A stretch of 64,000 bases of DNA. Origin: Verrucomicrobiota bacterium. GTDB taxonomy: Bacteria > Chlamydiota > Chlamydiia > Chlamydiales > JAEYWL01. This document shows positions 35,496 to 61,096 of the stretch, piece by piece (positions within the stretch are counted from its first letter, which is position 1; each line of letters starts with the position of its first letter). A program made the translations under genes and the position numbers. Below the pieces are notes generated by a model. It saw nothing but the letters and a program-made list of their open reading frames with translations. It was not told the origin of the DNA and ran no database searches. The stretch lies in contig JAEYWL010000046.1 of NCBI GenBank assembly GCA_023428915.1, positions 3 through 64,002 on the forward strand, written 5' to 3'.

Positions 35496-35724
35496 CTAGC
35501 CGCGAATGCGGCGGAAGCATGTAGCCACAGGCGTAAGCCTGTGGAGATGTTCAATCAAATAACCAAGTCGTGAATACGACGACAGAAGCAAGTCCGGATG
35601 CTGTTGGTTTGATAAGTGTGAATATGGTCTTTTCTCTGCCGCAGCTACGCAGCTCATTAACTTGCCTTAATTATACCGCAGGTTTACACCTGCGGCTACA
35701 TGCTTCCGCCGCATTCGCAGCTAG
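35496..35724. repeat. Palindromic element A (229 bp) inserted in a REP-2 copy
   Basis: 31-bp terminal inverted repeats ctagccgcgaatgcggcggaagcatgtagcc (35496-35526) and ggctacatgcttccgccgcattcgcagctag (35694-35724), with 1 mismatch. Each arm is followed by its own 8-bp hairpin. Confidence 0.75.
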
Positions 35725-35790
35725 CCTAATCACTTGTCGTTAATGTCCATTGCGTCAATAATGTCGATGATGTCGTTTGTCTATTCCAAA
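35725..35790. repeat. Other half of the split REP-2 repeat
   Basis: The reverse complement ggaatagacaaacgacatcatcgacattattgacgcaatggacattaacgacaag matches the left half of 63789-63892. Confidence 0.7.
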
Positions 35791-35871
35791 ACTGGAGTTT
35801 AGGAATTGTCCTTAAGGTTCATACCCCTTTAAGCGTCTAACTCATACTTTAGCAACACCAACGAGCCATTC

Positions 35872-35985
35872 TTAAAAATATTTTTTATTTTTCTTGTGTA
35901 GTTAAAAAGAAATCTGTAAAAGCTGGCGACGCAGAACGTGAACAGATATTAGCGATCTGTAACAATCTTTTATCCAGGAGAAATT
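35872..35985 (+). promoter_or_regulatory. Conserved leader/promoter, copy 1, of the duplicated secreted-protein cassette
   Basis: A ~114-bp stretch nearly identical to 37269-37383. It contains the hairpin acagat-attagcg-atctgt, a repeated atctgtaa, and the RBS ccaggag. Confidence 0.55.
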
Positions 35986-36298
35986 ATGAAATTTATAGCA
36001 ATGTTTTTTGCAGTACTAAGCGTATTATCTAGCCAAGTTGTTGAGCGCTAATGAGAAAATACCTCATTACACCGATCCAGGTTATGGAAAAGTCTATGTG
36101 CAGCCAGAAGATATTTATATTCAAGCAAACGGTGTTTTTTATAGAGATTTGACTGGGGCTGTAGTACCAGCACAAGTAGTGGCTTCAGACACCTTTGGAA
36201 TTTATATAATTACCGAATATTATAGATGTCCAGCATGCGGTTGGGCAAATAATAATAATGTTTGTATCAATAAAAATTGCTCTATGTATGGAAAATAA
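35986..36298 (+). pseudogene. Small 4-Cys secreted protein, copy 1, with frameshifted signal peptide
   Basis: The ATG at 35986 encodes MKFIAMFFAVLSVLSSQVVER*. Copy 1 has one extra nucleotide relative to copy 2 (caagttgttgagcgct versus caagttttgagtgct). The mature part then continues in another frame, which is the track ORF 36038-36298 starting at TTG. Confidence 0.6.
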
Positions 36299-36300
36299 AG

Positions 36301-58657: not shown

Positions 58658-58697
58658 AAAACAGAAAAAAATCAAAACCACAGCTTTATTGAAATCT

Positions 58698-59450
58698 ATG
58701 AAAATTATTTCTTGGAATGTGAATGGCATACGCTCAATCCTTAAAAAGGGATTCATAGACTTTATTAGCAAATACAACCCTGACATCTTGTGCCTTCAGG
58801 AAACTAAAGCGCGCCAAGAAGAAGTGCCGCTTGATATCCTGCCATATCGCCAATATTGGAATGCAGCGCTGAAAAAAGGCTACAGCGGTACTTGTGTTTT
58901 TACAAAAGAACACCCTCTTTCAGTTGTAAATGGCATTTTGCTCGATATTCACGATCAGGAGGGCAGGACAATCACTTTGGAATATCCAAATTTTTTTCTG
59001 GTAAATGTGTATGTGCCCAACTCTAAAAGAGATCTTTCCAGGCTCGAGTACCGCAGCAAGCAGTGGGACACCGATTTTCTAAAATATTTAAAAAATCTGG
59101 AGAGTAAAAAACCTGTTATCTTTTGCGGAGATTTGAATGTCGCCCATACAGAAATCGATCTGACCTTTCCACAAGCCAATGTAAAAAACCATGGCTTTAC
59201 TCCGGAAGAGTGCCAGGGGTTCGATCGCATCATAGAGTCCGGCTTTATCGACACTTTCCGAGAATTTGAAAAAGGACCCGGACATTATACCTGGTGGAGT
59301 CAATTCAATAGGTGCCGTGAAAGAAATATCGGCTGGCGCATTGATTATTTCTTGATCTCGCCTGCACTTCGCCCGCAATTAAAGCAATCGTATATCTTAA
59401 ACGAGGTAATGGGTTCCGACCATTGCCCTGTCGCCATAGAACTTATTTAA
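58698..59450 (+). CDS. xth: Exodeoxyribonuclease III
   Basis: MKIISWNVNGIRS, LCLQETK and SDHCPV. Confidence 0.93.
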   Translation: MKIISWNVNGIRSILKKGFIDFISKYNPDILCLQETKARQEEVPLDILPYRQYWNAALKKGYSGTCVFTKEHPLSVVNGILLDIHDQEGRTITLEYPNFFLVNVYVPNSKRDLSRLEYRSKQWDTDFLKYLKNLESKKPVIFCGDLNVAHTEIDLTFPQANVKNHGFTPEECQGFDRIIESGFIDTFREFEKGPGHYTWWSQFNRCRERNIGWRIDYFLISPALRPQLKQSYILNEVMGSDHCPVAIELI

Positions 59451-59488
59451 ACCCGACTTGCTACCTTATAAGGTAGCAAGTCGAGTTT
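59449..59488. terminator. Bidirectional hairpin shared by xth and hemCD (palindrome family)
   Basis: aaacccgacttgctacc (59449-59465), loop ttataa, then ggtagcaagtcgagttt (59472-59488), 1 mismatch. It overlaps both stop codons. Confidence 0.7.
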
Positions 59489-60767
59489 TAATTATTCTGG
59501 AATTTAGAGCACTTTGAGTAATGGGACCGATGGCGGTTAAGCGTTTGTGCGGCGGCAAGCTTCCGAAAAGGTCGATGAAAGCCTGTACAGTTGAAGGGCT
59601 GGTAAAGTGCAGTTCTTCAAATTGATTGAGGTCGGGTAAGAATTGGTAAGGACGTGTGGAAGTGGTGTAAATGCTGTATTCGGCAAATGAGAGAGATTTG
59701 CCTGTTAAATAGGTGCCGATTACGTTGCGTGCAGCAGCTGCGTGAGGCCAAAGCAGATGGCTTTGGCTTAAATCCAGGGATTCTAATAAAGCCACAACCC
59801 CTTCTGCAGTTTCTTGCTCAGGGACTAAGACGCCGGCAATGCCGTACTCAGTTAAAGCTTCTGCTGTGCGTTTACCGACTGCCAGCCAGGTTTTATTTGA
59901 CAGCTGCGGTAATTTTAGATTATTGAAAAAGAGGCTCACAGCTGTGCGACTGGTGAATAGGATGTGGGAAGCTTTATCTAGTTCATTTTGTGCCAAATTA
60001 ATTTCAGAAGAAATAGGAAAGGTCTCAATAATAGGGAAATGAAACACAGTATTGGCAAGCTCTTTGGGCGGTTCCAAACCTAGATAAAGAGTCTTTTTTG
60101 GTTCGCGTATATCAAGCTTAGTGAATAAAGCAGCCATTTCTTTATCATCTTCACGGGCTAGTATGGCCAGTTGTCCTTGCAGGGGTGTAGTGGTGCCGGG
60201 TAGGCGTACACGATTGAGATGGGTCAGCCCCAAGCGAATCAATGCTGCCTCTGCAATGACCACTCCATCTACTTTGCCCTTCTCCAATACTTGCAGCCGT
60301 TCCGCTATAGTGCCGCGGATGTCGCAAAAGGTGAGATCTCTTCTGAGCTGCTGCACATTTTCTTCTCGGCGCATCGAAGAGGTGGCTATAATGGCATTTT
60401 TTGACAAGCTCTCTAAAGTAGCTCCTTGGCGCAGTACTAATGAATCGGAAGGATCGACACCCTTTGTTATTGCCGCAATCTTTAAACCCTTTGGCAGGGG
60501 ATCGGGCAAGTCCTTGGCCGAATGAATGGCAATGCGGCAACCACCGTTCAAGAGCAGTGCATCGAGCTCTTTAGTGAAAAAATCGGTTTTATCCAATTCG
60601 CGCAGGGAAGTGGTGCGGTCGAGATCGCCGCTGGTTGGCATAGCTGTTACAGTGAAGTCGATTTCGGGATGGCTTAAACGCAATTCACCTAATACTTCCT
60701 GCACTTGAACCAGGGATAGCGGCGAGGCTCGCGCCCCTATGTGTATACTCTTTACCATCTTCAACAA
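59466..60767 (-). CDS. hemC: Porphobilinogen deaminase (domains 1-2 only) fused to a uroporphyrinogen-III synthase-like domain
   Basis: N-terminal HIGARASPLSLVQV, IAIHSAKDLP, ATSSMRR and IRGTIAERL are HemC-like. After about aa 220, TLYLGLEPP...FTSRTAVSLFF...AVGKRTAEAL is HemD-like. Confidence 0.7.
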   Translation of the reverse strand: MLKMVKSIHIGARASPLSLVQVQEVLGELRLSHPEIDFTVTAMPTSGDLDRTTSLRELDKTDFFTKELDALLLNGGCRIAIHSAKDLPDPLPKGLKIAAITKGVDPSDSLVLRQGATLESLSKNAIIATSSMRREENVQQLRRDLTFCDIRGTIAERLQVLEKGKVDGVVIAEAALIRLGLTHLNRVRLPGTTTPLQGQLAILAREDDKEMAALFTKLDIREPKKTLYLGLEPPKELANTVFHFPIIETFPISSEINLAQNELDKASHILFTSRTAVSLFFNNLKLPQLSNKTWLAVGKRTAEALTEYGIAGVLVPEQETAEGVVALLESLDLSQSHLLWPHAAAARNVIGTYLTGKSLSFAEYSIYTTSTRPYQFLPDLNQFEELHFTSPSTVQAFIDLFGSLPPHKRLTAIGPITQSALNSRIIKTRLATL

Positions 60768-60814
60768 ACCCTTGATACAATATGTTTTTGGTTAATAGCA
60801 GGAAAAGCGGGCTT

Positions 60815-61096
60815 GCCTTCTACGAGCTCGTGCCGTGCGCATTCAATTTCCCATATCTTTTTAAGAGGTTAACGCAGAGGCACAGAGACGCAGAGGGATT
60901 TTAGCGGGATATTACGACGAAAGAATCATGTTTTTTATTTTTCTTAATGGCTTTTTTTTATTAAGAGATAACTTTAATAAATATGAATGCTTCATCTTAA
61001 AATTCTCTGCGTCTCTCTCTGTCTCCCGCGCCTCTGCGTTTATTTATCAAGATATAGGTAATAAGATACGCATGCGGGCACGGACACGTAGAAGGC
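60815..61096. repeat. Palindromic element D: about 280-bp imperfect palindrome
   Basis: The left arm 60815-60895 (gccttctacgagctcgtgcc...aacgcagaggcacagagacgcagag) is imperfectly complementary to the right arm 61005-61096 (ctctgcgtctctctctgtctcccgcgcctctgcgtt...cgtagaaggc). The centre is AT-rich. Confidence 0.7.

Follow-up and report, generated by a model that had tools for sequence, protein, structure and literature searches.

What are the long palindromes that fill the spacers between the genes of a chlamydial genome? This question is raised by a 64,000-nucleotide stretch of contig JAEYWL010000046.1 (GenBank assembly GCA_023428915.1, order Chlamydiales), which we call the window and in which an earlier note, made from the sequence alone, had pointed to four long palindromes, A, B, C and D, lying within 26 kb next to gene ends. 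Our analysis suggests, at a probability of about 70%, that A–D represent several unrelated families of non-coding elements, some of them nested, which were inserted in intergenic spacers and which resemble MITEs (miniature transposable elements with inverted repeats) or REPINs, the doublets of repetitive extragenic palindrome (REP) units. Signs of insertion or of family membership were found in three of the four elements, namely A, C and D.

Four palindromes in intergenic spacers

The four palindromes are real and far beyond what chance would give. All of them were recovered by inverted-repeat scans, in which the search was ungapped, and our own seed-and-extend scan, which was used for window-wide scores, returned eight inverted repeats scoring at least 20 and four scoring at least 25. 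None was found at either score in 40 dinucleotide shuffles, so that the density of such palindromes is above that of shuffled sequence. When the elements were folded as single-stranded RNA and compared with dinucleotide shuffles, the z-scores were −11.4 for A, −19.0 for B, −21.0 for C and −8.4 for D. BLASTN analysis with a word size of 7 showed no similarity among the four, in agreement with the earlier statement that they have no primary sequence in common. Their overall sizes range from 229 to 426 bp and their arms from 36 to 58 nt, which makes them small elements (less than approximately 500 bp) with terminal inverted repeats. They contain only short open reading frames (ORFs) of at most 78 amino acids, and a query constructed as a chimera of every stop-free stretch of at least 28 amino acids in the six frames of A–D matched none of 5.8 billion proteins, including the gene calls of this genome itself.

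The architecture that had been ascribed to all four elements, with GC-rich and near-perfect distal arms, holds for A and C (arm GC content 0.52–0.63, centre 0.38–0.41), but not for B, which has its GC-rich arms on the inside and AT-rich arms at the outer ends, nor for D, the arms of which are imperfect. The proposed association with the 3′ ends of genes stands insofar as A–D all fill intergenic spacers and lie 12–105 nt from stop codons, with B and C located between convergent genes. However, D is nearer to the start of hemCD (approximately 31–40 nt) than to the stop codon of radA (105 nt). Two of the neighboring genes had been misnamed: the gene called ‘ldh’ encodes an ELFV-type amino-acid dehydrogenase, and the gene called ‘HIT’ has no match in Pfam or NCBIfam. 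Structured sequence was found in seven of the 10 intergenic spacers of at least 200 nt, and therefore A–D are not the only such elements in the window. The further structured loci are a repeat family E with four copies, a family F with two copies, and a hairpin-rich spacer at 5869–6233. Palindromic elements amount to approximately one third of the intergenic DNA in the window.

We considered whether the palindromes arose during assembly of the contig from metagenomic data, as foldback chimeras or through mis-joining. The Logan contigs indeed leave the interiors of A, B and C uncovered and end inside or just before these elements. However, independent Logan contigs (SRR13347294) are 100% identical to the window; one of them, L012, covers D from end to end at 100% identity and so confirms this element base for base, and separate contigs hold each arm of C joined to its own unique flank. 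The contig breaks at C fall where 31-mers become common to both arms, as would be expected of a real inverted repeat, and the elements are internal to a 148-kb contig with conserved genes on either side. We consider an artefact to be extremely improbable. We had also taken the breaks in C as evidence of a repeated sequence, and dropped this argument because the 31-mers are common to C's own arms and are uninformative about other copies. Logan contigs L001 and L010 (k = 31) end inside B, at 40044 and 40297. These ends are not due to the identity of B's own arms, in which the longest common exact stretch is 21 nt; they and a break in E1 at 35454 may possibly reflect repeats, heterogeneity or low coverage. 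Short-read contigs also break inside the E arrays.

The best named relatives of the ArgS and RadA proteins encoded in the window are those of Parachlamydiales, Protochlamydia and Parachlamydia, with 65–76% identity, and the closest metagenomic proteins are 72% (ArgS) and 81% (RadA) identical. Given these identities, the window comes from an uncultured environmental chlamydia of the Parachlamydiales type that has no close sequenced relative. An origin in Coxiella or Legionellales, at first suggested by mip, the GC content and the QMITE-like palindromes, was rejected on the same grounds.

Evidence for insertion and family membership

Element A interrupts a copy of family E. This family is a palindromic repeat of approximately 110 bp, present in four copies in the window, and its 18-nt unit (ATGGACNTTAAYGAC) has 13 matches there in four clusters, compared with 0.54 expected. 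When A is removed from the first copy, E1, the remainder is collinear with the reverse complement of E3, with matches at 92 of 108 positions. The sole gap in this alignment is 4 nt long and falls exactly at the A junction, which is the dyad of E. This collinearity, with the gap at the dyad, indicates that A is a 252-bp block at the apex of a pre-existing palindrome. The E copies without A serve as empty sites, although this is a comparison between paralogs and not between strains.

The core palindrome of A has 49-nt arms that are 90% complementary and a centre of 131 nt with 41% GC. Each arm contains a small hairpin (CCGC-GAAT-GCGG) followed by a GTAG-tagged hairpin (GTAG CCACAGGC GTAA GCCTGTGG), in which GTAG precedes an 8-bp stem with a GTAA loop, and the two GTAG hairpins are in inverted orientation. 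They differ at four positions, which constitute two compensated base pairs; the local hairpins thus stay perfect, while the long-range pairing of the arms is broken there. Within the 64 kb, these REP units occur only inside A. CTAG is present at both ends of A, but it is itself palindromic and is therefore uninformative about target duplication.

Element C has relatives in other genomes. In its terminal repeats, CAAGAT/CAGGAT motifs recur every 21–23 nt with GC mini-hairpins (GCGC-TTCG-type) between them, the centre is AT-richer, and GTAG is absent from the arms. The apical hairpin may be a separate nested unit. A 20-mer from the C arm matched eight loci in GTDB species genomes, four of which are on different contigs of a Rhabdochlamydiaceae metagenome-assembled genome (MAG), DATIJP01, and one in an unclassified MAG; the remaining three, bare matches of 20–21 nt in GC-rich genomes, were taken as chance. 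At the five chlamydia-type loci, the similarity to the C ends extends over 55–67 nt. The four DATIJP01 copies are palindromes of approximately 160–185 bp that are 89–93% identical to each other, and their second end is divergent, yet is detected by the hidden Markov model (HMM) of the family. The fifth locus is a 284-bp palindrome with the same ends. Throughout the family, CAGGAT is invariant and is repeated three or four times at intervals of 21–23 nt; the hairpins between the motifs vary in sequence among genomes while their hairpin form persists, and the interiors are unrelated. The copies in the other MAGs are intergenic, four of the five lying just after a 3′ end, and the locations include a spacer between divergent genes. 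This pattern is what would be expected of non-autonomous elements whose ends are recognized by one enzyme. In the window, the HMM built from C-type ends detected no further C-like end, and GCGAAGC, a very stable DNA mini-hairpin that among the elements occurs only in the C arms, is not enriched (nine occurrences against 11.3 expected).

We also observed a second, unrelated palindromic family of approximately 165 bp in DATIJP01, with ends CATGAACCTATC...GATAGGTTCATG and at least three copies in 32 kb. Colonization by multiple families is thus not peculiar to the genome of the window. In addition, the C-type element at locus L007 is bracketed by a 26-nt direct repeat (AGCAAGGGCCTCGCGCGT...; 7450–7475 and 7677–7701, 96% identity), which is far longer than a normal target-site duplication.

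Element D lies in the spacer between radA and hemC. The order rnc–radA–hemC is kept in two relatives, L016 and L017, in which RadA is 79% and 81% identical. Their radA–hemC spacers are 11 and 53 bp long and contain no inverted repeat, against 450 bp with D in the window; this empty-site comparison is one between genera, not strains. The inner arms of D contain iterated CGCAGAGG motifs and its centre has 21% GC. GTAG is present in D, but not beside a hairpin.

In the inner palindrome of B, a REP-like unit, GC(N)GC-GGTA-GC(N)GC-(T)GACAG, occurs four times (at 40082, 40183, 40207 and 40295), as two nested inverted pairs. Only 0.03 matches to this unit would be expected, and none occurs elsewhere in the window. 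Non-complementary spacers of 53 and 74 nt join the inner palindrome to the outer arms of 26–31 nt. The fold of B includes a one-sided hairpin, and GTAG occurs in loop and stem. As for its surroundings, an abhydrolase gene is directly beside argS in relative L014, whereas 8.5 kb lie between these genes in the window; L014 has the third-closest ArgS (72% identical), and its sample is also the source of the closest RadA. The window and this relative differ in the gene that follows argS as well, and C is located at that differing gene order. A and B lie within lineage-specific DNA, and the segment that contains them looks like a lineage-specific island. No long inverted repeats were found in relatives L014 and L015, and no comparable palindrome was found in approximately 45 kb of relatives' DNA. 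The segment also holds tandem paralogous genes (36277–37263 and 37696–38655), with an 87%-identical stretch common to both, and two FKBP-type genes.

The two copies of family F lie in opposite orientation. Of 82 aligned positions 81 match, and the copies are otherwise set apart by a 53-nt segment at the apex of F1. Judged from the alignment, this near-identity appears to show recent activity of the family.

Could the palindromes instead have been made in situ, by template switching, by hairpin-primed synthesis, or by local foldback duplication followed by quasi-palindrome correction? Such an origin would fit the absence of target-site duplications and the near-perfect arms around diverged centres, which templated correction would give, and both the difference between F1 and F2 and the one-sided hairpin of B could equally be apex deletions or slippage. 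However, elements homologous to the arms of C lie at unrelated loci of other genomes, A is a foreign block inside a repeat whose other copies do not have it, and with D a spacer of 11–53 bp has gained approximately 400 bp of new sequence. Moreover, none of the arms derives from adjacent coding or flanking sequence. The evidence contradicts in-situ generation in the case of C and A and gives it no support in that of D. The hairpin-primed repair suggested in the earlier note, which is not supported for C because the C ends occur at unrelated loci, is not specifically favored by anything in A, B or D. We regard formation in place as very unlikely.

Coordinates of the palindromic elements and related features. 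Positions refer to the window unless another locus is named.
Feature	Position	Strand	Description
Element A	35481–35732	.	Core palindrome 35496–35724; weak extension TGATT...AATCA
Element B	39996–40421	.	AT-rich outer arms 39996–40026 and 40390–40421
B inner palindrome	40080–40315	.	39-nt arms, 95% complementary; side hairpin 40119–40148
Element C	44606–45012	.	58-nt terminal inverted repeats, 93% complementary, 33 nt exact
C apical hairpin	44768–44861	.	33-nt arms, 94%
Element D	60799–61112	.	Outer arms 36 nt, 75% complementary ungapped, better with indels
E1 left half	35424–35480	.	Starts 1 nt past the stop codon of the amino-acid dehydrogenase gene; split by A
E1 right half	35733–35787	.	Collinear with E3 once A is removed
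E2	51794–51906	.	Uninterrupted; between divergent Trp/Tyr permease and sigma-54 genes, divergent promoter region
E3	63791–63892	.	Uninterrupted; paralogous ‘empty site’ for A
E4	63926–64000	.	In tandem with E3; ends at the window edge
F1	12642–12779	.	Palindromic repeat; extra 53-nt central (apex) segment compared with F2
F2	17872–17948	.	77-bp palindrome; matches F1 reverse complement
Segment with A and B	34343–42705		Amino-acid dehydrogenase gene, E1 and A, FKBP paralogues, B, hypothetical gene, HipA-HTH toxin-antitoxin pair
Second DATIJP01 family	L002 2946–3110, L002 6221–6387, L007 4908–5077		Copies of the palindromic family

Several other features of the window were also observed. F1 and F2 flank a gene of 1648 amino acids (12869–17815), in a layout that resembles a cassette bounded by inverted repeats. 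This gene is one of two giant paralogues, the other of which, with 1672 amino acids, lies at 6234–11252. Their identity is 39% from end to end, Pfam offers essentially no match to either, and a gene for an AAA_14/DUF4143 ATPase lies between them. The divergent spacer at 5869–6233 has 26% GC and a fold z-score of −11; it contains a directly duplicated hairpin (CAGTATGTATGGATTTATCATACATA), a perfect hairpin with a 22-bp stem at 6045–6099 and further AT palindromes, and adjoins an AbiEi/AbiEii toxin-antitoxin pair (4361–5868). An ORF of 1161 amino acids at 25761–29246, whose sole Pfam hit is a partial domain of DarT, a single-stranded DNA (ssDNA) thymidine ADP-ribosyltransferase, lies in a stretch that is approximately 5 kb longer than in relative L014. 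Finally, a 573-nt spacer at 57679–58251, upstream of a HigA-like antidote gene (58252–58557), has no structure or ORF and may be what is left of a toxin gene that has decayed.

Mobility, RNA function and possible mechanism

The suggestion in the earlier note that several families of foldback or transposon-like elements are present is thus supported by the multi-copy ends of C, by the position of A inside the dyad of E and by the short spacer that relatives have in place of D. A number of observations nevertheless weigh against mobility. First, few copies were seen within the 64 kb: A, B and D are present once each (compared with four copies of E and two of F), and BLASTN analysis with 7-nt words found no second copy of A, B, C or D there. 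The unbroken k = 31 Logan contig across D means that no near-identical copy of D exists in that sample, and the failure of the six-frame query of A–D to match any protein is a weak sign against a very high copy number. Second, few relatives were found in the collections searched. Searches of IMG/VR with an arm word of A, an arm word of B and a word of the C family, taken from the copies in other MAGs, gave no hits, nor did the B and C-family words in the JGI metagenomes or the concatenated A–F sequences in PLSDB. Hence, no relatives of A or B were found in the viral and plasmid collections, none of B in the JGI metagenomes, and none of D in plasmids, the sole collection tried for it. Approximately 110 kb of other chlamydial loci contained nothing similar to A–D except the C ends. 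In this connection, the genome of the window was itself not among the matches of the GTDB-genome scan with the C arm word or of the JGI scan with the B arm word. Third, no transposase family matched the window ORFs that were scanned, so that no partner transposase or REP-associated tyrosine transposase (RAYT) was identified, and inspection by eye of all eight ends of A, B, C and D revealed no convincing target-site duplication. The classical hallmark of MITEs is lacking because no such duplication is visible. The case for mobility is weakest for B, where it rests on the build of the REP cluster and on the location in a variable segment.

If the elements were not mobile, they might be host-selected structures that act in RNA, for example as bidirectional terminators, 3′-end protection, RNase III substrates or insulators. 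The distances of 12–105 nt from stop codons and the placement of B and C between convergent genes would suit such a role. So would the retention of the local hairpins of A through compensated changes, the persistence of the variable hairpins between the CAGGAT motifs of C across genomes, and the stable UUCG-type and GNRA-like loops that are present in the element arms. However, terminator-like and promoter-like sites are no more common than in shuffled sequence; for the former, we counted 10 in the window against 13 ± 3.9 in shuffles, and the only terminator-like matches in the arms are two weak sub-hairpins, in B and C. A search of Rfam 15 gave no family match at the gathering score, with only generic miRNA-hairpin models far below the threshold. 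Furthermore, the relatives do without D at the same radA–hemC junction, C-type ends occur elsewhere at unrelated loci, a divergent-gene spacer among them, and what A splits is another repeat, not a transcript end. An exclusively RNA-acting origin is, in our judgment, unlikely. It is possible that mobile palindromes were co-opted as RNA structures, a situation that would be compatible with the insertion of mobile families proposed here.

The build of A–D can be described in simple terms. Each is an inverted pair, or a set of nested pairs, of short units that combine an iterated motif with a GC mini-hairpin. Recognition sites of transposases or RAYTs usually take this motif-plus-hairpin form. 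Units inverted in this way fold into one long hairpin, from which side hairpins branch and whose middle is AT-richer and under less constraint. REP doublets and MITE ends are generally built from such pairs, which is the simpler explanation of an architecture common to unrelated families. Candidates for the protein-recognition sites are CAGGAT in C, GTAG with its hairpin in A, the GGTA-loop hairpin plus GACAG in B, the CGCAGAGG motif in D and, in E, the 18-nt unit. The elements may have been moved, now or formerly, in trans, by enzymes whose genes lie in other parts of the genome.

A mechanism directed by hairpins or ssDNA, of the RAYT/IS200 or IS110 kind, is more likely than classical cut-and-paste transposition by a DDE enzyme, because no target duplication is seen, A is located at the apex of E, F1 and F2 differ at the apex, and B consists of nested doublets. 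The location just past stop codons would have no designed function and would mark sites where insertion is tolerated or is directed to hairpins. The ssDNA-transposon-like mobility proposed in the earlier note is compatible with the absence of target duplications and with insertion at hairpin apices, but no candidate enzyme accompanies it.

We also considered the broader notion that environmental chlamydiae carry palindromic elements that move without target duplication and prefer the apices of existing hairpins, which would build up palindromes nested like ‘Russian dolls’. Such nesting may be seen in four places: in E1, which contains A; in F1, with its 53-nt centre; in the nested doublets of B; and in C, which has an apical hairpin. 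We find this generalization rather doubtful. If it is true, nested apex insertion would point to a structure-directed recombinase, either ssDNA-type or IS110-like, that has several specificities, in a phylum without a known system of this kind.

Comparison with known elements and significance

Palindromic MITEs and REP doublets are well known, so that A–D would be an ordinary kind of genome parasite and would involve no new principle. Small, non-coding, inverted or palindromic repeats in intergenic regions include the Rickettsia palindromic elements, the Correia elements of Neisseria and the enterobacterial ERIC/IRU sequences, and some of them have been co-opted for RNA processing or termination. 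These families have a defined consensus, a high copy number and, in most cases, known target duplications (TA for the Correia elements). A–D are similar to them in their small, intergenic and palindromic form, whereas a consensus, a high copy number and target duplications are not shown for A–D.

A closer likeness by description is found in Coxiella burnetii, whose QMITE1 (300–400 bp) and QMITE2 (150–190 bp) each form one very long hairpin (Wachter et al. 2018, PMC5896051). In both cases, an intracellular bacterium carries palindromes without genes; several unrelated families of them coexist in one genome, and they are located in intergenic regions or 3′ untranslated regions, with QMITEs often touching stop codons. 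QMITE2 has a GTAG REP, as does A, and a palindromic repeat serves as an insertion target in both, IS1111 having entered QMITE2 and A having entered E. In contrast, the QMITEs occur in Gammaproteobacteria with direct repeats of 2–11 nt and approximately 50 copies per genome, whereas A–D occur in Chlamydiota and no direct repeats were seen. A–D also encode no DUF1658-like peptides, unlike the QMITEs.

REPINs consist of two short, imperfect, inverted hairpins and a poorly conserved spacer that still pairs, and they are mobilized by RAYTs (Bertels & Rainey 2011, PMC3337134; Di Nocera et al. 2013, PMC3733652). The GTAG and 8-bp stem of A have the canonical layout of a GTAG-tagged REP (PMC3733652), and B is composed of clustered or nested doublets of one unit. 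REPINs and A–D are also alike in that they have no target-site duplications and are extragenic, downstream of genes. However, REPINs are approximately 90–130 bp overall, with spacers of 34–110 bp, and A–D, at 229–426 bp, are outside this size. REPINs are present in tens to hundreds of copies per genome, whereas the REP units of A and B are confined to A and B within the 64 kb. REPINs also come with a flanked RAYT gene, and no such gene was found among the window ORFs scanned. Unlike REPINs, C and D have no canonical GTAG-tagged hairpin.

The literature that could be searched yielded no account of such elements for Chlamydiae, only a report that full-length insertion sequences have expanded in Rhabdochlamydia (PMC9723776). 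If our explanation is correct, then several small palindromic mobile families have colonized the chlamydial lineage of the window as well as at least one MAG of the Rhabdochlamydiaceae. The elements are situated at or within sites where the gene order differs from that of relatives, and they break short-read assemblies; for these reasons, they would be relevant to the quality of chlamydial MAGs and to models of genome plasticity in obligate intracellular bacteria. In addition, the presence of one palindrome inserted exactly at the dyad of another would provide a testable hint concerning the mechanism by which these elements are targeted.

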